A stretch of DNA of 64,000 nucleotides from a virus (Duplodnaviria > Heunggongvirae > Uroviricota > Caudoviricetes): the IMG/VR virus record IMGVR_UViG_3300028610_000968; one strand, 5' to 3'. The position numbers were made by a program, and so were the translations under genes. The notes beneath the pieces are model-generated. The model was not told the DNA's origin. It was given only the letters and a program-made list of their open reading frames with translations, and searched no databases. The first letter of the stretch is position 1. Each line of letters begins with the position of its first letter. Positions 5,074 to 64,000 of this stretch are shown one piece after another.

Positions 5074-5394
5074 GTGAGGTTGTTGATGCAAAATAAATTA
5101 AGACTTGAAAGACGCATTAGAACCGAAGATACAGGCAAAGGTGTAAAATTATTAAGAAATATTTCAATACATTTTGAGCCTACAAAACATTTAGATTTAA
5201 AAGTATCTAATCATGCAGGCATACCTAATTTTGTAATCGCTTCTTTGCATTACGAAGTAATTACTCACGTTATGGAAGCTCATGAATACGCTACATTGTG
5301 GGCTAAAGATGATAAGCACCTTGAAGATTTAGTAAGACAATATTTAAAAGAAGATTGGGTAATTATAGATAAGTATGGAGGTACTGAGCTATGA
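5074..5394 (+). CDS. hypothetical protein (106 aa)
   Basis: ORF overlapping the natV-like start by ATGA. Confidence 0.4.
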   Translation: MRLLMQNKLRLERRIRTEDTGKGVKLLRNISIHFEPTKHLDLKVSNHAGIPNFVIASLHYEVITHVMEAHEYATLWAKDDKHLEDLVRQYLKEDWVIIDKYGGTEL

Positions 5395-6344
5395 ACATGG
5401 AACCAGAAGAGGAACTCAGTGACATAGGTGTGATTGTGGGTAGATTCCAAACCCCTTATTTAACTGATGCACACAGAGACATGATGCACACTGTGCTAGG
5501 AAAAACTGGCAGATTGCTCATAATAGTGGGGGTAGCTCATACTAGAGTGACCATGAATAATCCTCTCAGTTACGAATCGCGGAGGCAAATGATATTTAAT
5601 GAGTTCCCAACCACGACAATAGCCTATATTAAAGATGTACCAGACAACGATGAATTGTGGTCAAGAAATCTAGACTCTATAATTAATGATTTCAGAGGCC
5701 CAAATCACAGTGTTATGTTGTATGGTGGTAGAGACAGTTTCATTGGCCGTTATCATGGTGGGTTTAATACACGCAAATTCTTAGAGAAGCCATGTCAATC
5801 TGCGACACAGTTGAGAAAAGAAACTGGTCTGCGTGAACTACCAACTGCTCATTTCAGAGCAGGTGTTACGTGGGCAGCTCAAAATAGATTTGCAACCTCT
5901 TATCAAACCGTGGATATTGCAGTTTTAAAAGATGAAGAACTGCTAATTGGTAGAAAAGAGAACGAAATAAAATGGAGATTTCCTGGAGGGTTTGTTGACC
6001 CGCAGAAAGATGATTCATTGGAAGCAGCTTGCAAACGAGAAGTCAATGAAGAGACATGTGCAGAAATAGATGATTTAAGATACGTTTGTAGTCTTAGAAT
6101 TAATGATGGTCGTTATAGTAGAGAAGAAGATAAAATAATGACCGCATTTTACACAGCCAAATATATCTTTGGTGATATACAACCAAGAGACGACTTAGAT
6201 GAACTGAAGTGGGTAAGATTTTTACCAAGTGGAAACACAGACATCCTGCCTGGTGATTTAATTCCCAGCCATGAAGACTTATTAAGGGAGTTAATACACC
6301 ATTGTAGAGAAAAAGGAATAAGTAAAGAAGAATTCACTGTTTAA
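5391..6344 (+). CDS. natV: bifunctional nicotinamide-mononucleotide adenylyltransferase / Nudix hydrolase (NadM/NatV-like)
   Basis: The N-terminus GVIVGRFQTPY...DAH is a nucleotidyltransferase (T/H)xGH-like motif. The C-terminal half carries the Nudix box GGFVDPQKDDSLEAACKREVNEETCAEI. It lies immediately upstream of nadV, as in the known phage NadV/NatV pairs. Confidence 0.7.
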   Translation: MNMEPEEELSDIGVIVGRFQTPYLTDAHRDMMHTVLGKTGRLLIIVGVAHTRVTMNNPLSYESRRQMIFNEFPTTTIAYIKDVPDNDELWSRNLDSIINDFRGPNHSVMLYGGRDSFIGRYHGGFNTRKFLEKPCQSATQLRKETGLRELPTAHFRAGVTWAAQNRFATSYQTVDIAVLKDEELLIGRKENEIKWRFPGGFVDPQKDDSLEAACKREVNEETCAEIDDLRYVCSLRINDGRYSREEDKIMTAFYTAKYIFGDIQPRDDLDELKWVRFLPSGNTDILPGDLIPSHEDLLRELIHHCREKGISKEEFTV

Positions 6345-6365
6345 TAATAAGGGAGAAAGGTAGAG

Positions 6366-7775
6366 TTGATGAGCAAAAAGAACATTATTTTAAGCACAGA
6401 CAGTTACAAAATTGGTGCTCACCACAATATGTATCCACCAGGCACACGAGGAATATACTCCTACCTGGAGGCGAGAAATACGGCAAGGTGGGATGAGACT
6501 GTTTTCTTTGGGTTACAATACATACTCAAGAACATGTTCTTAGGCCGAGTTGTGACCCAAGAAAAAATAGATGAAGCAGAAACATTGTGCTTGGCGCATC
6601 TAGGCCCAGGAGCCTTTAACAAAGCTGGGTGGGAGCACATACTCAATAAACACGACGGAAGATTGCCAGTAATGATAAAGGCAGTGCCGGAGGGCATGGT
6701 AGTTCCGAAAGATAATGTGATGCTCACCATACTAAACACTGACAAAGAGTGTGAGTGGCTAACATCATACTTGGAAACACTTTTGAGCCAAGTTTGGTAT
6801 CCAAGCACAGTGGCTACTCTCAGTCGTGAAGTCAAAAGAATTCTCAAAGCTTATTTGGGAATGACTTCAGACGATGTAAGTAGTCTACTCTTTAAGTTGC
6901 ATGACTTTGGAGCAAGGGGCGTAAGTACTATGAGTGGCGCTGAGATAGGTGGTCTTGCCCATCTAGTGAACTTTATGGGTACTGACACCCTGGCCGCGAT
7001 TGTGTGCGCTAGAGACTATTACAATGCCCCGCGTGACTTCAGCGATATTGCTTTCTCTGTACCAGCAACGGAGCATAGTATCATGACTAGTTACGGCAGA
7101 GAAGGAGAAATAAGGTTGTTGGGCGAAATATTAGCCAAATACCCTGCTGGAATCTTGAGCGTCGTGGGAGATTCTTACGACATTTACAGATTCGTAGACG
7201 AGTACATGGGCAAAATCTACAAAGAACAGATACTAAAACGTGATGGAGTATTCGTCGTTAGACCAGACAGTATATCTCCAGAGCATAGAACCCCTGGTGA
7301 GCAGGTACTTTGGATATTACAATCGCTTTACCATAATTTTGGAGGCGAAATAAACAGCAAAGGATACAAAGTTCTTAACCCGAAAGTAAGAGTTCTTTGG
7401 GGAGACGGACTAAGTATAGATTCAATCAGTGAGACATTAGCTTTTGTGGAACTAAACAAGTTCAGCACTGATAACATAGCTACATTTGGGATGGGTGGTG
7501 GCTTACTTCAAGACGTAAATCGAGACGTACAGCGGTTTGCTTTCAAGTGTTCTTCACAACTCAGAGATGGTACTTGGCATGATATTCGTAAACAACCAAG
7601 AGATGTGTACAAAGCGTCCAAAGCAGGAAGACTTAAATTAATCAAGGTTGGAGAAGAGTTCAAAACAGTCCTAATCTCAGAGGAAGGCGAAGACCTATTA
7701 GAAACCGTATTCGTTGATGGTCAATTGATACGTGATGAAAATTTTACCGACGTAAGAAAGAGAGCGGAACTTTAA
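6366..7775 (+). CDS. nadV: nicotinamide phosphoribosyltransferase (NAMPT / NadV)
   Basis: 469 aa with an N-terminus ILSTDSYKIGAHHNMYPPGT... typical of NAMPT. Size and overall pattern match. RBS GGGAGAAAGG. Confidence 0.8.
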   Translation: MMSKKNIILSTDSYKIGAHHNMYPPGTRGIYSYLEARNTARWDETVFFGLQYILKNMFLGRVVTQEKIDEAETLCLAHLGPGAFNKAGWEHILNKHDGRLPVMIKAVPEGMVVPKDNVMLTILNTDKECEWLTSYLETLLSQVWYPSTVATLSREVKRILKAYLGMTSDDVSSLLFKLHDFGARGVSTMSGAEIGGLAHLVNFMGTDTLAAIVCARDYYNAPRDFSDIAFSVPATEHSIMTSYGREGEIRLLGEILAKYPAGILSVVGDSYDIYRFVDEYMGKIYKEQILKRDGVFVVRPDSISPEHRTPGEQVLWILQSLYHNFGGEINSKGYKVLNPKVRVLWGDGLSIDSISETLAFVELNKFSTDNIATFGMGGGLLQDVNRDVQRFAFKCSSQLRDGTWHDIRKQPRDVYKASKAGRLKLIKVGEEFKTVLISEEGEDLLETVFVDGQLIRDENFTDVRKRAEL

Positions 7776-40290: not shown

Positions 40291-41355
40291 TTGGATTTAA
40301 GATTAGGAGCTGACCCAGAGCTACCATTAGTCAACAAAACGGGTCAAATAGTACCAGCGGAAGAAGTCTCAGCCGCAATCAGGCGAAGTCAAAAAGTTAA
40401 GAAAGACGGTATCAATGTTGAGATAAACCCCTCAGCAGCCTCGTGTAGAGAGCATTTACTCAGTTACATCGGTTCCTCGATAATGAGCGTTCAACGTATT
40501 TGCCAAAGCGAAGGTCTCGACGTTAGCAGGGCATCCACCTACGAAGTTCCAAGAAAAGTACTGGATGCTTTACCAGCAGCCGACAGACAGTTTGGTTGTG
40601 AAGAAGATAAAGATGCGTATTCCGGCAAAGTGAGAGTAGTCAAAGCCGACCCGAAGCAATTAGATAGGTATGCTGGTGGTCACATGCACTTTGGGTCTCC
40701 TTCATTAACTCGGCTCACCGACAAACAAATCCACGAAGTAGTACAGCTCTTAGATATAGGTGTTGGTAACATCGGTGTGCTCTTTGAGCAAGACCAAGAG
40801 GACAGCAACAAGAGGCGTAGGGAAGTCTATGGTTCCGCAGGAGCTTACAGACGGCCAGCACACGGGTTAGAGTACCGAGTTCCCTCTAATTGGTGGGTAT
40901 GGCATCCGGCAACAACTTCTATGATTTTCCTCTTAGCTAGGACTATGATAACCATGTACTTTGAGAACTCTGTCTTAGCCAAGACTATTATTTCTCATCT
41001 AGCGGAGTCTTCAAAGCAGGCTATCAACTTACAAGATAAGTACTTAGCTTTGGATAACATCGCTTACTTAATAGAGTTGTTCCACAGACAAAAACCATTG
41101 CCCAATAGGGTATCTGATGGCACTTTGATAGGTTTAGGTAAGAGGTTTTTTCGCCTCGACGACCCATTCGAGTGGGCTTCAATTATCTACTTGGCCGATA
41201 ACCAAGAAATTTTAGGAACAAATCTATTCACAAATTGGAAGGGTGTAGGATACGGAAAATCTGGTTATCAGAAGTTCATATCCAGCACATTGTCTCAAGA
41301 CCCAGGATTTATGGCTCAGTACGGCTTTCTAACTGGATTAAGGAGAATATTTTAG
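40291..41355 (+). CDS. GCS2/YbdK-like carboxylate-amine ligase (glutamine-synthetase-fold amidoligase)
   Basis: TTG start after GAAAGGAAG. The N-terminus LRLGADPELPLVN is a variant of the L-G-x-E-x-E motif, and GGHMHFG matches the G-x-H-x-H-x-G motif of GCS2 enzymes. Confidence 0.45.
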   Translation: MDLRLGADPELPLVNKTGQIVPAEEVSAAIRRSQKVKKDGINVEINPSAASCREHLLSYIGSSIMSVQRICQSEGLDVSRASTYEVPRKVLDALPAADRQFGCEEDKDAYSGKVRVVKADPKQLDRYAGGHMHFGSPSLTRLTDKQIHEVVQLLDIGVGNIGVLFEQDQEDSNKRRREVYGSAGAYRRPAHGLEYRVPSNWWVWHPATTSMIFLLARTMITMYFENSVLAKTIISHLAESSKQAINLQDKYLALDNIAYLIELFHRQKPLPNRVSDGTLIGLGKRFFRLDDPFEWASIIYLADNQEILGTNLFTNWKGVGYGKSGYQKFISSTLSQDPGFMAQYGFLTGLRRIF

Positions 41356-41684
41356 TGCTGTTAGTGCAAGTAGGTAATCCAGATCAACTTTATCTTATTG
41401 AGTTTCCAATGGCAGAGTTAGTTTGGTGCTATGGAGATTTAATAAGTGAAGAAAAGAAAATGGAACTGGAAACAGGGAAAGAGTGTGACAGACTGTTCTT
41501 TCAAATTGAAGGAGAGTTGTGGCTTTCGATTCCAAAAGATGTTCATTACTACTTTAAAGAATTGAGAACACACACAGGGGCTTTCACAAAAAAAGTGATT
41601 ACTCCACCAATGTTTTACAAGATATTTATGAATCCCACCGAAGTGACGGCTAGGATAGAGGATAAATTAGTATGTGCGGGATAG
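41355..41684 (+). CDS. hypothetical protein (about 109 aa)
   Basis: GTG start overlapping the previous TAG, after AAGGAG. Confidence 0.35.
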   Translation: MLLVQVGNPDQLYLIEFPMAELVWCYGDLISEEKKMELETGKECDRLFFQIEGELWLSIPKDVHYYFKELRTHTGAFTKKVITPPMFYKIFMNPTEVTARIEDKLVCAG

Positions 41685-42925
41685 TAGCGTTAAGTTTAGA
41701 GAACAAGGTAAGGACAGAGAAAGAGTACGGAGATATTCGTACCCTATTGGGTTCATTAATCCAATCTACTAGTAAAAGAGGAGAACACGCTACAGGGATA
41801 GTTACCATTAGTAAAAGTGGTGACGCTGTATTGCTCAAATCGAACGCCAAATCAGCGGAGTTCATTGAATCGGAACAATACAATATGCTAATCCCAACCA
41901 TAGGTGCTAGAACCAAAACTATCCTAGCTCATTGTAGGAGAACCACTAAGGGTTCAGCATCCATCAAACAGAATAATCATCCTGTATTAGTACACCCCTT
42001 TGTGGGGATACACAACGGTACTATTATGAATGATGATGAGTTGGTGAAAGAACACAAACTGTCCAGGGACGGCTCTGTTGATAGTGAAGTAATTATTAGG
42101 TTGCTCAAACATTACAACCCTAAGAAGATAACAAAGGAATCTATTAAGAAAACATGTGAGGAATTAGAAGGTGGATTTGCTTGCGTTACAGTTAATTTAC
42201 ACCAACCTAATATCTTGGGGCTTTACAAAAATCGTAACCCAATAATTGTTTTCAGAGTACCAGAGTTGGGACTTGTCGGAGTTGTTTCTGAGTACCTTTT
42301 CATTAGTGATGCTTTGAAGGCAGTAGGAATCAAAGGCACTAGTGATACTTTCCACATGCGCGGTGACAGAGGTTTAATCCTTGATTCTAATATACCCCAA
42401 AAAGGTATAGACTATGGAGACCAGGCGTTTCTAATTGACGATGCTAATCCGGTTGGAAAAAGTTTCGAGGGTTACTACACTGCTGCTGATAGAGCAGAAG
42501 TGCAAAGGAGAAGAAAAGCTGGTTTAGGGAGTGAGTTCGGACACAATCAAGGAGTAAATATTGATAGAAATAGGAGGCAGCACAGTTTAGCCCCAGGAAA
42601 ACAGTTAGGGGATACTACTATGGAAAGTGCTAAAATAAAAGCACAACTACACTACGCTATGAGTTCAGAGATATTTAAAACAAGGTTACTCAAGAACGGT
42701 GGACATGCTATGAATAGAAATGATAAGGACAATCTCCTAGATATATTCAATGCAGCCTATCTGATGGGTCGTTATACCTCTGGGCAAGAGCTTGAGAATG
42801 TAAAAACACTAGAGGAAGAGGCATTAATATCAAATATGGAAGTATTACTCACAGAGCGAGCTTCTTTCCTACAGTTGCCTTATGATGAATTGTCTGAAAA
42901 AGTAAAGAATAGGAAGAGTTCTTAA
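41672..42925 (+). CDS. class-II (Ntn) glutamine amidotransferase domain protein with an uncharacterised C-terminal domain of about 200 aa
   Basis: N-terminal MCGIV (Cys2 nucleophile), then HCRRTTKGS and NNHP, which are GATase-II signatures. There is no asparagine-synthetase SGGxDS motif. Confidence 0.65.
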   Translation: MCGIVALSLENKVRTEKEYGDIRTLLGSLIQSTSKRGEHATGIVTISKSGDAVLLKSNAKSAEFIESEQYNMLIPTIGARTKTILAHCRRTTKGSASIKQNNHPVLVHPFVGIHNGTIMNDDELVKEHKLSRDGSVDSEVIIRLLKHYNPKKITKESIKKTCEELEGGFACVTVNLHQPNILGLYKNRNPIIVFRVPELGLVGVVSEYLFISDALKAVGIKGTSDTFHMRGDRGLILDSNIPQKGIDYGDQAFLIDDANPVGKSFEGYYTAADRAEVQRRRKAGLGSEFGHNQGVNIDRNRRQHSLAPGKQLGDTTMESAKIKAQLHYAMSSEIFKTRLLKNGGHAMNRNDKDNLLDIFNAAYLMGRYTSGQELENVKTLEEEALISNMEVLLTERASFLQLPYDELSEKVKNRKSS

Positions 42926-58596: not shown

Positions 58597-59393
58597 TATT
58601 TTCTCCCTGTAGAATCCTCAATGCCTAAACCTTTGGCGGTGTCTCTCAGACTACTTGTGTCGTCTCCAGCTCTATAACCAGAAGCAAAAGCAGTAACAGT
58701 TTCCCCGACATTCATAACACCTGTATCTGAAGCAACATAAGAGAATGTATCTCCACCTCTGAAGCCCATGCCCATTCCTTCACTCCAAGCGTCTTGGTTA
58801 GCTCCTAAGTATAAGAACTTCCAGCCACACTCTTCTTTACTATTGATCAATCTTCTAACATCATCAGCGGTGTACTCAATGGATGAATTCTCCATGCCGT
58901 CAGTAATAACAACAACTAATGTTCTTGTTTTTTTAGTGACCGCACACCCGCACTCTCCACACTCAGTAAGTCTTCCTTCGCCAGAGAATTTATTGACAGT
59001 GTGCCCTACAGCATCTAATAGATTCGTACCACCTCTAGGTCTAAAACTGTTTCTAGAGAGATTAGGTACTTTTCTAACATCTTTCTGTGAATGCACAACC
59101 CTCACATCATCTGATATGTTTGCCTCTACCGGAAGAGGAGGCCACATAGTAGTCGTCGTCGTTGGCTCAAAAGGGTCAGGGCGCTGTTTCTTTTTTGTTG
59201 GTGCTACTAACCTCCGTTTGTTGTGAGATTTATCAAACGTAACTAACGTCATTCTAGTTTTTCCTTTTTCTCTGACTTGCTCATTTTTAAACTCATTGAA
59301 CATACCGATAGTGGCGTCCCTAATCTTTTCCATTGAACCAGACCTGTCAAGTATTACCACTATATCTAAATCCTTATTCTTTCCCATTCGCAT
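58596..59393 (-). CDS. von Willebrand factor A (VWA) domain protein
   Basis: MIDAS motif DIVVILDRSGSM near the N-terminus. Confidence 0.6.
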   Translation of the reverse strand: MRMGKNKDLDIVVILDRSGSMEKIRDATIGMFNEFKNEQVREKGKTRMTLVTFDKSHNKRRLVAPTKKKQRPDPFEPTTTTTMWPPLPVEANISDDVRVVHSQKDVRKVPNLSRNSFRPRGGTNLLDAVGHTVNKFSGEGRLTECGECGCAVTKKTRTLVVVITDGMENSSIEYTADDVRRLINSKEECGWKFLYLGANQDAWSEGMGMGFRGGDTFSYVASDTGVMNVGETVTAFASGYRAGDDTSSLRDTAKGLGIEDSTGRK

Positions 59394-59571
59394 CTAACCT
59401 TTCTATTGTTTTTTCTCTTCTGATATTGTCTATAAACCCACTTACCCGACTAACACAATTAGGACACAAACCAAGCGAACTGGCTCTCCCCAATTGCTGC
59501 ACATTGCCCTCAAATGGAGTAATGAATTCATCTTTTACTACAGTATCACAACCATCACAAAGTATTCTCAA
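59374..59571 (-). CDS. Zn-ribbon protein (65 aa)
   Basis: CDGC...CPNC. Confidence 0.4.
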   Translation of the reverse strand: MRILCDGCDTVVKDEFITPFEGNVQQLGRASSLGLCPNCVSRVSGFIDNIRREKTIERLDANGKE

Positions 59572-60327: not shown

Positions 60328-60764
60328 GGGAAATCATCAGTATCCATAGGAATATCTTCCTCAGTGGTTTCTTCCAACTTTTGCCTTATAGTGGGAGAAG
60401 GTTCAGTTTTTTTAGAAGTAGGTTTCCCCTCACCAGCACCGTTGTTGCCACCAAAATCTATTTCTCTACAGATAATACCGTTCCTGTTCCACCAGCTACC
60501 ATCCTCTTTTTTACCAGACACAGCTTCAAGCTCTCCAGTAATGGTGACTCTAGTTCCTTTTTTAATATAGTCATAGGCTATTTCTGCCAACTTCCCATAC
60601 GCCGTACAATTAATCCAATTCGTCTTTTCTTTTTCCTTAGACACAATCCTGTTGTTGGCTATCTTATAATTGATAACTGCCATTTCATTTGCTAAATACT
60701 TCAGCTCTGGGTCAGCTACTAGATAACCTACCACACAACATGTGTTAATATCATTCCTTGCCAA
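60318..60764 (-). CDS. ssb: single-stranded DNA-binding protein
   Basis: OB-fold pattern, a Gly-rich linker and an acidic tail ending DDFPWE. Confidence 0.75.
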   Translation of the reverse strand: MARNDINTCCVVGYLVADPELKYLANEMAVINYKIANNRIVSKEKEKTNWINCTAYGKLAEIAYDYIKKGTRVTITGELEAVSGKKEDGSWWNRNGIICREIDFGGNNGAGEGKPTSKKTEPSPTIRQKLEETTEEDIPMDTDDFPWE

Positions 60765-60887
60765 TTACATCATTCTCCCTTTTCATTTTTTTCAATTCAC
60801 TTTTACTAGATTTTTCATAGTTACATTCTTCACAATACTCTTCAGACATCCAAGCTCCACATTCAGGACACTTAAAATCCTCTACAC

Positions 60888-61385
60888 TCATCCGACACTA
60901 AACACATCCTCGCCTATCCTTTGTAAAATCAACTGATTTTCAGAACCAGCCCAACTCTTGTGTTTTGGACTTTCTTTTTCATATCTTCCTATCACCAAAG
61001 TTTCTATCTCTACTAACTCCATTGGTTCATTTTTGAATCTCTTCATAATGTCTTCTAGTTCATATCCAGTGTACAGCCAAATACTACTTTTGGGAAACTT
61101 GTCTTTGAATCTTATTATTAGCTCCTTAACGCTTTCCCACTGGTCAAGAGGTTCACCGCCAGAAACTGTCAAACCATCATATGCTCCTGCATTATTTTTC
61201 TCAAAATAATTCATTAAGTAATCAACAGTCGCTTCGTAGCCGTCGTGTGTGTTCCATGTGTGAGAGTTATGACAACCTTTACACTGTAAAGAACACCCTT
61301 GAACCCACAAAACATACCTCAACCCTGGCCCATTTACTATACTATCAGTTGTAATAGAGGATACTCTAATTTTCTTCTTCGACAT
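60888..61385 (-). CDS. nrdG: anaerobic ribonucleotide reductase activating protein (radical SAM)
   Basis: GPGLRYVLWVQGCSLQCKGCHN carries the CxxxCxxC motif. Size is 165 aa. Confidence 0.8.
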   Translation of the reverse strand: MSKKKIRVSSITTDSIVNGPGLRYVLWVQGCSLQCKGCHNSHTWNTHDGYEATVDYLMNYFEKNNAGAYDGLTVSGGEPLDQWESVKELIIRFKDKFPKSSIWLYTGYELEDIMKRFKNEPMELVEIETLVIGRYEKESPKHKSWAGSENQLILQRIGEDVFSVG

Positions 61386-61548
61386 TTTTCACCCCATTGT
61401 GATTTACTCTGTCTTCCAGCTCACTAATTTTAGCTGGGTTCCACTTATCTGTTTCAGCTAAATAACCTGTTATCCTTTGTATATATCTTATATCTGTACT
61501 TTTACAACTTGGACACTCTATCGCTTTTTGCTCTGTCACTATCATCAC
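61366..61548 (-). CDS. nrdD: NrdD C-terminal fragment: second zinc CxxC pair plus glycyl-radical domain, encoded as a separate 60-aa ORF
   Basis: CPSCKS...RITGYL...WNPAKISELEDRVNH matches the NrdD glycyl-radical signature (R-x-x-G-Y...W-N-x-G-K-x-x-E-x-x-x-R). Confidence 0.65.
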   Translation of the reverse strand: MMIVTEQKAIECPSCKSTDIRYIQRITGYLAETDKWNPAKISELEDRVNHNGVKNVEEEN

Positions 61549-61862
61549 CCCACGTGTATTATTTTTGTATCAGGACAATTCACTCTAAGATACTGCACTA
61601 CTTTCCATGTATCTTCATAGAATACTTCTAATCCCATTTCTTTTATAACTACGGATTTGTGTATTGCAGCGTCCTCATGTGTGAAATTCAAAGGATTAAA
61701 TGATACTGGATTATTGATGCCCCTTTGGTTTAGTTCATTTAATGTTCCTTCAGCAATAGAATAAACTCTGCCTGTAATTATAACAGCGTGTGACTCTGGC
61801 ATTAGCTCAGGCCCACCTATTATAACTCCATCTATATCATACCCTACTCTTAGTAATTCCAC
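61545..61862 (-). CDS. HAD-like protein (105 aa)
   Basis: GYDIDGVI (DxDGV motif I). Confidence 0.35.
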   Translation of the reverse strand: MELLRVGYDIDGVIIGGPELMPESHAVIITGRVYSIAEGTLNELNQRGINNPVSFNPLNFTHEDAAIHKSVVIKEMGLEVFYEDTWKVVQYLRVNCPDTKIIHVG

Positions 61863-62374
61863 TTTGCAATCTCCTCTATTAATTCTGTATCTCTGGATAA
61901 AATCCCTAGTCCATGCTCAACTCTCATCTCATACTTAGGCCAATCAATCTCCTTGAAAGTTTTTCCTACTCCCCAATCATAAGACATAGTATCATGAAAA
62001 AGCACTACCCCACGTGGTGAGAGGAACGGACTCCAATCATTAAAATCTTTCATAGACTGTACATCATCGTGAGTACCATCAATGTGGAGTATATCTATTG
62101 ATTCTTTCCAATCTTTCAATGCCTCTTCAAAGGTCATTTTCAACAAAGTTACGTTGCGAAGATTAAGTCGTTTTCTATACCCTTCGGCCTCGTCAATCTT
62201 ATCACTCAGATCAATTCCATAAACATGACCACTACAGTATCTGGCAAATACAAATGTTGAATACCCTAAATCCACACCTAAATCCACAATAACCTCTGGG
62301 TCTACTCTGCCCACCAACCACTCAGCAAACAACGTGTGCGCTTTCCAAGCACTCTCTATAACATTTAAATTCAT
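61850..62374 (-). CDS. class I SAM-dependent methyltransferase-like protein (174 aa)
   Basis: VIVDLGVDLGYSTFVFA is a motif I-like glycine-rich loop. Confidence 0.45.
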   Translation of the reverse strand: MNLNVIESAWKAHTLFAEWLVGRVDPEVIVDLGVDLGYSTFVFARYCSGHVYGIDLSDKIDEAEGYRKRLNLRNVTLLKMTFEEALKDWKESIDILHIDGTHDDVQSMKDFNDWSPFLSPRGVVLFHDTMSYDWGVGKTFKEIDWPKYEMRVEHGLGILSRDTELIEEIAKWNY

Positions 62375-62568
62375 TTAGTAAAACCAAACGGTATTTTATC
62401 TGGTTTATCCTTTCGTACAAGCTCTTGTCCATTGGCTCCATATATCACTATAGGTCTGCTGTATGTTTTTTCTTCCACGGTCAGCTCTGGATTGTGAGTT
62501 TTTCCACCGTGTCTCATATATCTTCCAGTCACACTGTTCCATTCCCAAGCACTATCTCTTTGTGTCAT
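62371..62568 (-). CDS. hypothetical protein (65 aa)
   Basis: ORF track entry. Confidence 0.4.
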   Translation of the reverse strand: MTQRDSAWEWNSVTGRYMRHGGKTHNPELTVEEKTYSRPIVIYGANGQELVRKDKPDKIPFGFTK

Positions 62569-62840
62569 TATTCTACCACCAGTTCATAGGTTTCTACAAA
62601 TATATCAGGTTTACAAGGATAATGTTCACCCTTAATTCCAGTGATTATCAAGTCACCGGGGCAAACAACATGCCCACCCTCAAGAGTATCAATCCAACCA
62701 TGACTTTTCATCATACAGCCACAATGTTCACACGACCCATCACGGCCAGAATCTTTAAGACTTTCTACTTCTGGATGATCGCCGTCCTTAAACCACTGGT
62801 CAGCTTCAATAACTACTGGTTTCTTTCTGAACTTTACCAT
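62568..62840 (-). CDS. conserved hypothetical Cys/His protein (90 aa)
   Basis: CEHCGC...H...C...C. Confidence 0.4.
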   Translation of the reverse strand: MVKFRKKPVVIEADQWFKDGDHPEVESLKDSGRDGSCEHCGCMMKSHGWIDTLEGGHVVCPGDLIITGIKGEHYPCKPDIFVETYELVVE

Positions 62841-64000
62841 CTACTCTCTCACCAATGTTCCACATTGTCTACACTCTGCTATATTATAATTTATAGCTCC
62901 GTACCCAACATCATTCTGTGACATTATCCTCACCACAGACATTACTGCTTCTGGGTTGTCCATTGGACTTGTATCAAACTCAATGTAAGATATATGTCCG
63001 CCGTTACAGTACTTGTGGAATCTCCCTTCCACTCTCATTTTGTCTACTATGGAAATCTTATGGTCTACTGGTACGTGGAAACTATTAGTATAGTATCCTT
63101 TATCAGTAATCCCTTTAATTTCACCAAACTTTTCCTTATCAATATTAGCGAATCTACCAGCAGTTGACTCAGCTGGTGTAGCCATTAACGAAAAGTTTAA
63201 ATTATATTTATCAGAGTAACCATCAATGTTTTTTCTCATATGTTTCACCACATGTTCAGCCATCTCTAAAGCGCCTTCATCTTCTCCGTGATGCTTGCCC
63301 ATCAAGAGTTTAACAGCCTCAGCCAAACCGACAAACCCCATTGACTGAGTGCCATTCTTCAAAGCTTCTCTAATCTCATCGTTGGGATTTAAATCTTCGC
63401 TGCCTTGATACAAATGCTGACCGAACATAAATGGAAAATCTTTCTTCTTCATTTTACTAACCATTTCAAATCTAAACGCAAGTTGTTCTGCTGCTAAATC
63501 CATAATTTTATCTAGTTGTTTATAAAAAAGTTCATCATTAAACAATCCTATAACTACTCTTGGTAAATTAATAGTAGTGAATGAAACATTACCTCTACCA
63601 CCCACAGTATTTTCACCAAATCTATTATTCAGTACTCTGGTTCTACAGCCCATATAACTTGCTTCATCAGCGTGGTCTATATTAAACGAAGCATCCATGA
63701 AACTATATGTGGGCCAAAATCTTCTGGCCGAGACTCTACAAGCTATCTCGAATAAATCGTAGTTAGGGTCTCCAGGTTCCATGTTGATACCCTTTTTCAA
63801 TCTAAACACTGTGTTGGGGAATATGAACGTTGTACCATCCATTCCCTTTTCCATCACATACAGTATACAAAGAGTTATTGCTCTCCCTAATTCTGTAGTA
63901 TCTGCTCCTATGTTAATAGAAGAAAATGGAACTTGTGCTCCAGCTCTAGAGTGCATTGAATTTAAATTATAAATGAATCCCTCTACACCTTGATACAGTT
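62841..64000 (-). CDS. nrdD: anaerobic ribonucleoside-triphosphate reductase NrdD, main catalytic body; partial (N-terminus beyond the window), ending just after the first zinc CxxC pair
   Basis: GRGNVSFTTINLPRVV is a class III RNR motif. It ends ...ECRQCGTLVRE then a stop. The reading frame stays open upstream of the annotated Met to the window edge. Confidence 0.75.
   Translation of the reverse strand, partial: LYQGVEGFIYNLNSMHSRAGAQVPFSSINIGADTTELGRAITLCILYVMEKGMDGTTFIFPNTVFRLKKGINMEPGDPNYDLFEIACRVSARRFWPTYSFMDASFNIDHADEASYMGCRTRVLNNRFGENTVGGRGNVSFTTINLPRVVIGLFNDELFYKQLDKIMDLAAEQLAFRFEMVSKMKKKDFPFMFGQHLYQGSEDLNPNDEIREALKNGTQSMGFVGLAEAVKLLMGKHHGEDEGALEMAEHVVKHMRKNIDGYSDKYNLNFSLMATPAESTAGRFANIDKEKFGEIKGITDKGYYTNSFHVPVDHKISIVDKMRVEGRFHKYCNGGHISYIEFDTSPMDNPEAVMSVVRIMSQNDVGYGAINYNIAECRQCGTLVRE

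Follow-up and report, generated by a model that had tools for sequence, protein, structure and literature searches.

Can an anaerobic ribonucleotide reductase function when the domain that carries its glycyl radical is encoded as a separate small protein, several genes away from the catalytic barrel? This question is raised by one end of a 64,000-nt stretch of Caudoviricetes DNA (the window, taken here as the entire stretch analysed), where the class III reductase gene nrdD lies in two pieces within a densely packed minus-strand gene array that has nrdG at its end (Table 1). Glycyl-radical enzymes are thought to require that the radical domain be tethered to the barrel, and in the literature searched GrcA, a repair protein of pyruvate formate-lyase, is the only exception to such tethering. 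A sequence-only reading of this DNA had suggested a genes-in-pieces NrdD that works as a split enzyme or else supplies a free-standing radical module; its ORF placements all proved exact, and the proposal itself appears well supported, as the residues of the enzyme are complete across the two pieces and the same break recurs elsewhere.

Table 1. Features of the split nrdD locus, listed from the body to the activase gene (positions in the window).
Feature	Position	Strand	Basis
NrdD body, C-terminal 385 codons in window	62841..64000	-	Pfam NRDD, NF005497
Inserted ORF 1, 90 aa phage protein, function unknown	62568..62840	-	phrog_419
Inserted ORF 2, 65 aa, without detectable family	62371..62568	-	Pfam/PHROGs/NCBIfam searched
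Inserted ORF 3, 174 aa, class I SAM-dependent methyltransferase	61850..62374	-	Pfam Methyltransf_24
Inserted ORF 4, 105 aa, N-terminal DIDGV motif, without family match	61545..61862	-	sequence reading
NrdD tail, 59 aa from ATG 61545 (60 aa from GTG 61548)	61366..61548	-	Pfam NRDD
NrdG, radical-SAM activase	60888..61385	-	TIGR02491, Pfam Fer4_12

The larger piece, the NrdD body, comprises an ATP-cone and a barrel and is 657 aa at full length, as seen on a 129-kb contig (L004:6732-8705). It matches Pfam NRDD over positions 136-516 of 562 (E 7.6e-125), NCBIfam NF005497 with 777.6 bits (cut-off 764), reaching position 696 of 746, and TIGR02487 with 503.7 bits (cut-off 326), ending at position 534; by these curated thresholds, the body alone is a class III NrdD barrel. 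Its finger-loop motif MGC390RT, together with NC199LQ and GRGN409, aligns with P. copri NrdD (8p23), and all three are invariant in 33 homologues. The nearest NrdDs belong to Bacillota, at about 52% identity with none closer found, and since all of them are intact, the split is specific to this lineage. The polypeptide ends as ECRQCGTLVRE-TAG (stop at 62843-62841), six residues past the first zinc CxxC, whose knuckle is formed by C648 (62873-62871) and C651 (62864-62862).

The remainder of the enzyme lies on a small ORF that had been given as 60 aa: an ORF of that length is present, but gene callers choose its ATG at 61545 and thus a product of 59 aa, with the TGA of the 105-aa ORF overlapping this start codon (TGATG). 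The tail matches the end of Pfam NRDD (positions 522-562 of 562, E 6.5e-12), of NF005497 (700-744 of 746) and of PDB 8p23 (residues 698-740, E 3e-9); in Pfam only NRDD is matched, and Gly_radical is not. It carries the second zinc knuckle (CPSC, with C11 at 61515-61513 and C14 at 61506-61504), followed by the glycyl-radical loop RITG27Y, in which G27 is encoded by GGT at 61467-61465, and by a C-terminal helix. An AlphaFold2 model of the tail alone places G27 at the tip of a beta-hairpin ahead of this helix, with moderate confidence (pLDDT 70.7). Its nearest relatives are NrdD C-termini, with 61.5% identity to that of an intact Bacillota NrdD (P0003) versus 28-51% to stand-alone tails. The 3' end of the tail gene overlaps by 20 nt an intact nrdG, whose product scores 141.2 bits on TIGR02491 (cut-off 126.1) and matches Pfam Fer4_12 (E 1.1e-35).

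How do the two pieces relate to one uninterrupted enzyme? The gene is cut exactly within the zinc-ribbon loop that separates the two knuckles, the body ending and the tail starting at positions 516/522 of NRDD, 534/539 of TIGR02487 and residues 688/698 of P. copri NrdD. Pfam and NF005497 coverage confirms what had been read from the letters, namely that the body stops after its first CxxC while the second CxxC and the glycyl-radical motif sit on a separate ORF; the two profile ranges are complementary and non-overlapping, with nothing missing and nothing duplicated, which excludes chance. The four zinc cysteines are divided two and two (C648/C651 on the body, C11/C14 on the tail), and every residue of the chemistry is kept across the two pieces (C390, C199, N409, the four zinc cysteines and RITGY), although barrel and glycyl-radical domain do not share a single polypeptide as in an ordinary NrdD. 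Across the break, the two CxxC pairs are 16 residues apart (17 with the GTG start) versus 9 in the 117 nearest intact homologues, the spacing in T4 NrdD being 14. The earlier statement that a 17-residue spacing matches intact NrdD is thus right as to range only: on these alignments the inter-knuckle spacing is in range, but the geometry is not identical to that of the nearest homologues.

From the body stop to the tail ATG, 1,295 nt are occupied by four tightly packed, unrelated ORFs, and the tail, 1.3 kb away, is in a different frame from the body. The first ORF begins with an ATG directly after the body TAG and in the same frame, and matches phrog_419 (E 3.8e-29), with otherwise only a weak PGDYG-like match. 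The start of the second overlaps the stop of the first, and it has no family match in Pfam, PHROGs or NCBIfam. The third is indeed the SAM-methyltransferase-like gene that had been suspected (Pfam Methyltransf_24, E 1.4e-19). For the fourth, described earlier as HAD-like, the DIDGV motif was the sole basis of that label, which stays tentative: no PHROGs or NCBIfam model matches this ORF, nor does any in Pfam, where matches up to E<=10 were considered. Stop and start codons abut or overlap across all seven genes, the overlap between the methyltransferase gene and the 105-aa ORF being larger (13 nt); the GC content of the insert equals that of its flanks without any shift, no repeats were found at the insert borders, and no promoter signal in the array rises above chance level. 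The overlapping or abutting codons, the even GC content and the lack of an above-chance promoter fit an old, integrated operon. Three assemblies, from ENA, Logan and JGI, show this same arrangement; their DNA is 100% identical over 4.8-12.6 kb, so that they may derive from one sample or from the same reads.

Is this cut peculiar to one phage? A profile search gave 843 matches, and among the best 120, 52 are 80 aa or shorter, their contigs measuring 5-208 kb; each of the 52 has 3-20 residues ahead of its CxxC and lacks a first CxxC. These stand-alone tails are 49-66 aa long and share the order short leader, CxxC, R-[IV]-[TV]-G-[YF] and WN..K..EL.DR, while C11, C14, R24, G27, W35, K39, E42 and R46 are invariant when the window tail is aligned with all 52. 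Judged from these alignments, stand-alone NrdD tails are a large conserved family, which the window tail fits by size and motifs. The same split recurs independently in four other settings: in another virus group (7 contigs, in the order body, nrdG, 85-aa ORF, tail), in Patescibacteria (4 contigs, in the order nrdR, body, 40 nt, tail, nrdG, thioredoxin) and at two DPANN-type or archaeon-like loci cut at the same NrdD break point. All of these other split bodies end at TIGR02487 positions 534-538 (L026, L019, L025 and L013; the window body ends at 534), and their tails begin at 537-541. Other tails are orphans, found in virus-like contigs with neither an NrdD body nor nrdG within 4-6 kb: P0150 (6 contigs) adjoins an endolysin, P0171 (3 contigs) occurs with a Cas4-like nuclease and PolB, and a third example is P0158. 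For the stand-alone tails of Patescibacteria, DPANN and uncultivated viruses, no description was found in the literature, and database entries only.

The other split bodies match best on TIGR02487 and NF006126, whereas the window body is of the NF005497 type, a subfamily whose other members are intact. Neither body subfamily nor tail identities place the window with the other split NrdDs by common descent; as both body subfamily and tail affinity differ, the split arose more than once, which in turn argues that this cut is tolerated. These comparisons point to a window split that is convergent with the others, and recurrence of the break in viruses and in tiny bacteria and archaea probably reflects a working design.

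Taken together, the locus most likely encodes a functional two-polypeptide class III reductase, in which a shared Zn(Cys)4 site would join the chains and the tail would be the substrate of NrdG. The large chain of 657 aa has the ATP-cone and the ten-stranded barrel with its catalytic finger-loop cysteine, as well as the first CxxC knuckle, and the small chain of 59 aa has the second CxxC knuckle, the radical-bearing glycine and the C-terminal helix. The two would be translated separately, with translational coupling of the tail both to nrdG and to the ORF ahead of it, and would reassemble without splicing. Two cysteines from each chain would make up a common Zn(Cys)4 site, and each chain would also supply a strand of the ribbon hairpin, after which the glycine loop would enter the barrel beside the finger-loop cysteine. 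The glycyl radical would be made on the small tail by NrdG and S-adenosylmethionine, possibly before docking; the glycyl radical domain of P. copri NrdD is known to be mobile, and its movement is expected to be mostly that of a rigid body (PMC11226230). A possible benefit is that oxygen cleavage at the radical glycine would cost a 7-kDa tail rather than a 77-kDa enzyme, the tail acting as a replaceable fuse.

Alternatively, a recent insertion of four genes might have disrupted nrdD, leaving body and tail as non-functional remnants that have not yet decayed, in a phage relying on the reductase of its host. One lineage is known, without sequence variation among the three assemblies and without any close relative above about 52% identity, and the zinc-ribbon loop has 7 residues more than that of the nearest homologues, all of which speak for this scenario. 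Against it, both frames are intact and all catalytic and zinc residues are kept despite about 48% divergence from the nearest relative; the tail begins at a start codon of its own, which overlaps the preceding stop, and retains an ancestral overlap with an intact nrdG, the insert has the composition of its flanks and lacks border repeats, and it would take a coincidence for a random insertion to hit the very site of the cut in natural two-piece NrdDs. Disruption is therefore unlikely.

The tail could also serve mainly as a GrcA-like spare part for oxygen-cleaved host NrdD, besides or instead of the phage body. The orphan tails P0150, P0171 and P0158, with no body or nrdG nearby, speak for such a role, as does the phage-encoded spare part for pyruvate formate-lyase documented in T4 (Y06I, as cited in PMC13450708). 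Yet the tail provides exactly what is missing from the phage body, and the two share an array with nrdG, which makes the phage body the obvious partner; moreover, the tail would have to displace the second zinc knuckle still present on an oxygen-cleaved host NrdD, and a spare part for a class III reductase is unreported (PMC13450708). A main role of this kind seems decidedly improbable.

Could the 1.3-kb interval instead be removed from the RNA or the protein through a group I or II intron, a split intein or ribosomal bypassing, to yield a single-chain NrdD? Introns and inteins are frequent in phage nrdD, for example in T4, Lactococcus phage 949 and Clostridium phage c-st (PMC3653736), the nrdD of Jug phages is also interrupted (PMC12880540), and the insertion in nrdD of Eggerthella phage EL753P1 is a LAGLIDADG intein. 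Here, however, a search of positions 60500-64000 on both strands with Rfam gave no ribozyme match at E<=1, and the interval is wholly protein-coding, with four ORFs end to end; the argument made earlier against an intron thus stands, and an nrdD interrupted by a group I intron of the T4 type was rejected. Pfam detects no intein domain in body or tail, and the 6 residues past the first CxxC and 10 ahead of the second are too few to hold split-intein halves, ruling out a fractured gene with a split intein. At L019, where the interval contains nrdG itself, an N-terminal break of nrdD has a recognisable split intein (C-TRLY... and ...AHN|C) and the tail break has no intein sequence, so that inteins would have been visible; the final nrdD junction of the Jug phages is likewise without splicing reads (PMC12880540). 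Rejoining into one chain is therefore very hard to credit. An assembly or sequencing artefact is scarcely conceivable, for even if the three identical assemblies go back to the same reads, the ENA, Logan and JGI pipelines agree with zero differences over 4.8-12.6 kb, and the insert consists of four clean co-oriented ORFs with the composition of their flanks.

If a two-piece NrdD is indeed the product of this locus, class III would resemble class I, whose radical sits on a separate subunit. A separate 7-kDa radical domain would offer a handle on how the activase reaches the glycine and on how the domain enters and leaves the barrel, and would test whether a zinc site can join two chains. A cut shared by viruses, Patescibacteria and DPANN, together with the viral orphans, may be a common, overlooked tactic against transient oxygen. 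More speculatively, and with considerable doubt, the C-terminal 50-65 residues of NrdD might form an autonomous, exchangeable radical subunit that is activated alone by NrdG and docks on tail-less barrels via an intermolecular Zn(Cys)4 site, serving as an oxygen fuse in two-piece NrdDs and allowing viral orphans to re-arm or hijack host NrdD, which would give class III reductases their first spare-part system. The tails are also a common source of mis-annotation, with 58-aa proteins named as full 'anaerobic ribonucleoside-triphosphate reductase', and bodies may score as truncated.

Which known systems does this arrangement resemble? Friedrich et al. are said to have described in 2007 that mobE, a free-standing homing endonuclease gene, splits nrdA of Aeromonas phage Aeh1. 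The Aeh1 split nrdA is listed in PMC3653736, and in both cases the catalytic subunit of a phage reductase is cut by inserted DNA into two separately translated polypeptides that are expected to reassemble unspliced. Unlike the class I enzyme of Aeh1, that of the window belongs to class III, and the cut removes the radical-bearing domain and crosses the zinc site; its insert consists of four genes with no recognisable homing endonuclease or other nuclease (HNH, GIY-YIG, LAGLIDADG or other) in Pfam, PHROGs or NCBIfam. The likeness drawn earlier to nrdA split by a homing endonuclease therefore holds for the outcome and fails for the cause, and a split made in the Aeh1 nrdA/mobE manner was rejected, as no endonuclease gene lies between the halves. 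Other fractured genes contain split inteins (Dassa et al. 2009, as cited in PMC3653736); they too have a reductase gene in separate ORFs with other genes between, but rejoin by trans-splicing inteins, whereas the window break has no intein sequence. In gut jumbo Jug phages, nrdD is in several pieces, insertions commonly encode endonucleases or intein domains, and introns account for most of the junctions; no evidence of mRNA splicing was noted where the fragment of 230 aa meets that of 91 aa, a junction left uninterpreted there (PMC12880540). The 91-aa fragment may resemble the window tail as an unspliced C-terminal piece. Fragmented phage nrdD was thus already known, and the literature searched holds no description of an NrdD break at this point.

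Pseudomonas aeruginosa NrdJa/NrdJb, a split class II reductase (Crona et al. 2015, as described in PMC9669993), is a natural two-chain reductase as well, in which the zinc-finger module of the small C-terminal chain NrdJb services the barrel of the large one; that finger is intact and bears a redox cysteine pair and no radical, whereas in the window the zinc site is divided two and two between the chains and the small chain bears the glycyl radical. For pyruvate formate-lyase, GrcA/YfiD and T4 Y06I serve as autonomous spare parts that carry a glycyl radical (PMC13450708 and PMC8683613). Like the window tail, GrcA and Y06I are small and stand-alone and have a glycyl-radical loop; they are activase substrates that work in trans with a barrel, as the tail may do. 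They are homologous to the radical domain of the formate-lyase (Gly_radical) and rescue damaged full-length enzyme, whereas the window tail is NRDD-type and its partner body never had a glycyl-radical domain. The stand-alone tails of Patescibacteria, DPANN and viruses are cut at the same point as that of the window and agree with it in size (49-66 aa) and in the order of their motifs; in cellular split NrdDs the tail directly follows the body, whereas in the window four genes lie between them.

The two pieces of nrdD, the gene for anaerobic (class III) ribonucleotide reductase, lie with the activase gene nrdG among seven closely packed genes on the minus strand of 60888-64000. ORF positions and profile matches (see table) bear out the sequence-only reading, which had described a split nrdD with four ORFs between its pieces. 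In Pfam NRDD (562 positions), the body covers 136-516 (E 7.6e-125) and the small ORF, or tail, 522-562 (E 6.5e-12); in NCBIfam NF005497 (746 positions), the body extends to 696 (777.6 bits, for a curated cut-off of 764) and the tail spans 700-744. These complementary matches show that body and tail are the two halves of one NrdD. The full 657-aa body, including its ATP-cone, was supplied by an exact-protein look-up, nrdG is intact and overlaps the tail gene, and a second nrdD copy is absent from the 64-kb window and from an extra 7.5 kb upstream. Among the intervening ORFs, the gene proposed to be SAM-MTase-like does match a methyltransferase family, and the supposed HAD-like gene has a DIDGV motif but matches no family.

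Features of the nrdD locus, of the rest of the phage and of compared loci (L, retrieved loci or contigs; P, proteins from homologue searches)
Feature	Location	Strand	Match or context
NrdD body, 3' 385 codons	62841 to beyond 64000	-	Profile matches
90-aa ORF	62568-62840	-	phrog_419 (unknown function)
65-aa ORF	62371-62568	-	No family match
174-aa methyltransferase	61850-62374	-	Methyltransf_24
105-aa ORF	61545-61862	-	No family match; DIDGV motif
NrdD tail, 59/60-aa ORF	61366-61545/61548	-	Pfam NRDD, NF005497
nrdG	60888-61385	-	TIGR02491, 141.2 vs curated cut-off 126.1
46-aa four-cysteine protein	60751-60891	-	Downstream of nrdG; CPEC...CEEC, weak double-zinc-ribbon match
65-aa four-cysteine protein	59374-59571	-	Downstream of nrdG; CDGC...CPNC
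Auxiliary metabolic genes	5391-7775 and 40291-42925	+	Nicotinamide phosphoribosyltransferase, cytidylyltransferase-NUDIX fusion (NAD salvage), COOH-NH2 ligase beside glutamine amidotransferase
Orphan tail P0150	L008:4237-4407, L009-L011		6 contigs; downstream of CHAP/GH25 endolysin
Orphan tail P0171	L014:6001-6189, L015, L016		3 contigs; with PolB, Cas4-like nuclease, ERCC4
Orphan tail P0158	L024:673-873		Virus-like contig; with HNH
Tail P0124	L007:1-674		Between XRE-type HTH regulator gene and nrdG
NrdD with split intein and separate tail	L019:4643-7274, also L020-L022		Virus-like locus
In-frame TGA in NrdD	L025:5150-5175		Candidatus Tiddalikarchaeum anstoanum, GCA_902385255.1
952-aa NrdD of Eggerthella phage EL753P1	L002:2446-5304		OP172808.1

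The concatenated pieces were aligned with the best 119 homologues, conservation being scored on the 117 of at least 660 aa. These homologues (~49-53% identity, 670-700 aa) are all intact, the named ones belonging to Bacillota, and follow the pattern C-x2-C, nine residues, C-x2-C-G-S, then RRITGYLS; the phage pieces read ECRQC-GTLVRE-stop (body) and M-IVTEQKAIE-CPSC-KS...QRITGYLA (tail). Alignment to intact NrdDs, the check that had been suggested for locating the break point, therefore places the cut at the tip of the inter-knuckle loop of the zinc ribbon; compared with the homologues, the loop is three residues longer on the body side and four residues longer on the tail side. The spacing across the break, previously said to match that of an uninterrupted ribbon, does so only roughly, as it amounts to 16-17 residues in the phage versus nine in its nearest homologues; it is 14 in T4 NrdD. 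Mapped onto Prevotella copri NrdD (8p23), the closest solved structure, the body extends to chain residue 688 and the tail starts at 698. The cut thus falls inside the glycyl radical domain as defined for this enzyme, in which residues 676-739 comprise a structural zinc site, the buried loop of Gly711 and a C-terminal tail (PMC11226230).

Is such a cut restricted to this phage? A HMMER search with the tail among 1.84 billion representative proteins returned mostly short proteins, many of them fragments, and since an initial methionine fails to separate these from real mini-ORFs, genomic context and contig size were used instead. Three candidates were discarded: a 651-aa "partial" NrdD ending at almost the same residue through contig-end truncation (P0046), a contig-edge fragment of an intact gene (P0127), and a sequencing-adapter artefact (P0140). 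The same cut was found in a virus-like locus (L019-L023; 7 contigs from five datasets), in which a first NrdD piece ends in an N-intein (C-TRLY...) and is followed by a 49-aa ORF, and a second piece opens with a C-intein (...LYAHN|CSSHPL) and finishes ...ELTVCKDCKQITQGIYVKQ-stop, before nrdG, an 85-aa CxxC protein and the tail (MTQHIKYECPKCKS...TRTVGYF). This nrdD carries a recognisable split intein at one break and none at the tail break, whose interval includes nrdG; its body has no relative in IMG/VR. On four contigs from Patescibacteria (L026-L028), nrdR is followed by a 713-aa body (...FTYCNECGKTTRGIFE-stop), after which come an A-rich spacer of 40 nt in another frame, the 58-aa tail and lastly nrdG and thioredoxin. 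Among archaeal or archaeon-like contigs, a 208-kb contig of Candidatus Tiddalikarchaeum (L025) has a body ending ...CRDCGRVSPGYNRGGVKNG-stop followed by a 59-aa tail, and an archaeon-like contig (L013) a body ending ...CLDCGKNH-stop followed by a 60-aa tail. On TIGR02487 (581 positions), these other bodies end at 534-538 and their tails begin at 537-541, the values for the window being 534 and 539. Separately, the Tiddalikarchaeum NrdD appears split into 519 and 280 aa by an in-frame TGA where the finger-loop CC motif has its first cysteine (...TLSA-TGA-CRLKT, for KLSQCCRL in L019), which points to selenocysteine or read-through at a catalytic position instead of a true break; the related L013 has a frameshift close to the same position.

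A profile search with the tail alignment among 5.8 billion protein clusters gave 843 matches at E<=1e-5. Within the best 120 of these, 52, from contigs of 5-208 kb, are at most 80 aa long; each of the 52 has 3-20 residues ahead of a single CxxC, and together they form strongly conserved subfamilies. Named sources of tail matches are Patescibacteria, Nanoarchaeota, Woesearchaeota, Bathyarchaeota and Methanobacteriota. Neither Pfam nor NCBIfam has a dedicated model for stand-alone tails, which match only the last ~40 positions of full-length NrdD models. The window body is of the NF005497 type and the other split bodies score best on TIGR02487 and NF006126, while the window tail shares 61.5% identity with that of an intact Bacillota NrdD versus 28-51% with stand-alone tails. 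A body of a different NrdD type and a tail nearest to intact Bacillota NrdD together indicate that the split in the window arose independently of the others.

Three tails (56-66 aa) occur in virus-like contigs with neither an NrdD body nor nrdG within the 4-6 kb retrieved on each side. These orphan tails might serve a class III reductase as spare parts, i.e., replacements for a damaged glycyl-radical domain. A fourth tail (P0124, on a 674-nt contig) has no body immediately upstream and shares 78.6% identity with the C-terminus of an intact NrdD of 1,101 aa (P0189); its contig may represent a further body/tail pair parted by other genes, seen on 674 nt only. A tblastn search with an orphan tail among cultured phages found intact nrdD genes only, and diverse tails, once aligned, varied too much to support a degenerate DNA scan.

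A functional two-chain NrdD is the probable reading of the phage locus, based on a body lacking exactly the tail's part, an intact activase gene, no rejoining device, and a repeatedly used break point. The two chains would reassemble around a common Zn(Cys)4 site, to which each would supply one CxxC knuckle and one ribbon-hairpin strand; the glycine loop of the tail would enter the barrel beside C390, and NrdG would install the radical on the tail. An AlphaFold2 model of the tail by itself (pLDDT 70.7, from an alignment of 53 sequences) places G27 at a beta-hairpin tip, with a helix following; Foldseek gave this model no significant match in the PDB (best E = 2), the module being too small to inform alone. 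A detachable version is plausible since the radical domain of intact P. copri NrdD is highly mobile, with largely rigid-body movement expected (PMC11226230). As oxygen cuts the chain at the radical glycine (PMC3019208; PMC13450708), a separate tail would be a cheap replaceable part, a benefit that we put forward as a hypothesis. That nrdD was recently disrupted and is now decaying is unlikely; the residues of the chemistry are all kept (finger-loop MGC390RT, C199, N409, the four zinc cysteines and the radical glycine G27 of the tail). A tail mainly serving the host enzyme has a slimmer chance still, the phage encoding its own body. The joint proposal of an exchangeable radical subunit (the tail) and of orphan viral copies serving host NrdD as spare parts is tentative, and we would sooner doubt than accept it. 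The genes-in-pieces interpretation is supported, with the corrections given here, and function itself is what we infer.

Could the interval instead be removed? An Rfam scan of both strands of 60500-64000 found nothing at E<=1, and the interval is wholly coding, its junctions being TAG-ATG, TAATG, ATGA, a 13-nt overlap and TGATG, so that the earlier argument from dense ORF packing against an intron holds. With only 6 and 10 residues flanking the break, there is no place for split-intein halves; Pfam detects no intein domain in either piece, and none of the four inserted ORFs matches a homing-endonuclease family. There are no direct or inverted repeats at the insertion borders and no GC shift across the insert, in which promoter-like sites do not exceed chance and the few terminator-like hairpins fall within coding sequence. 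Recoding of TAG was rejected, as it is an ordinary stop that ends 11 of 49 long ORFs, and read-through would fuse the body to an unrelated 90-aa ORF and not restore the tail; the body TAG (62841-62843) is abutted, in the same frame, by the ATG of this ORF (62838-62840). From the DNA there is no sign of removal, and splicing of the interval is very improbable given the lack of a ribozyme match, the full coding content and the lack of room for intein halves.

An assembly artefact is scarcely credible, as the same layout was found by exact-protein look-up on a 129-kb ENA contig, a Logan contig and a JGI contig, and agreement of three assemblies argues that it is no accident of one assembler, although their DNA is 100% identical across 4.8-12.6 kb and the samples may not be independent. 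The window is part of a novel large phage, with five tRNAs and NAD-salvage genes, whose DNA polymerase shares no more than ~35% identity with any phage record; a near-identity DNA search of 50,697 phage records gave zero matches. Close relatives of body or tail in IMG/VR amount to a single partial contig (L003), ending before the C-terminus, and one scanned metagenome yielded only an intact NrdD of 44% identity (L018). The annotated NrdD of phage EL753P1, among the closest phage relatives of the body (46.6% identity), holds an in-frame intein of ~1 kb with a LAGLIDADG homing endonuclease that is missing from the annotation.

Aeh1 nrdA provides a functional precedent for a reductase gene in pieces. 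Split reductase genes occur in 16 of 128 phage genomes, nrdD being most often split, via introns, inteins or unknown causes (PMC3653736), and the general phenomenon is therefore already known in phages. Class II NrdJa/NrdJb is a natural two-chain reductase with a zinc finger on the small chain (PMC9669993), and formate lyases are, according to a June 2026 review, the sole glycyl-radical enzymes with known spare-part proteins (PMC13450708). Phrase searches of the literature for split, fragmented or truncated nrdD returned nothing, and the literature searched holds no description of a zinc-ribbon cut that frees the radical domain as its own protein, nor of such a cut recurring in viruses, Patescibacteria and DPANN archaea alike. 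Of 104 genomes of gut Jug phages, 95 have a fragmented nrdD, and the authors note no evidence of splicing between fragments of 230 and 91 aa; this observation, left uninterpreted there, is what in published work comes closest to suggesting an unspliced C-terminal piece (PMC12880540).
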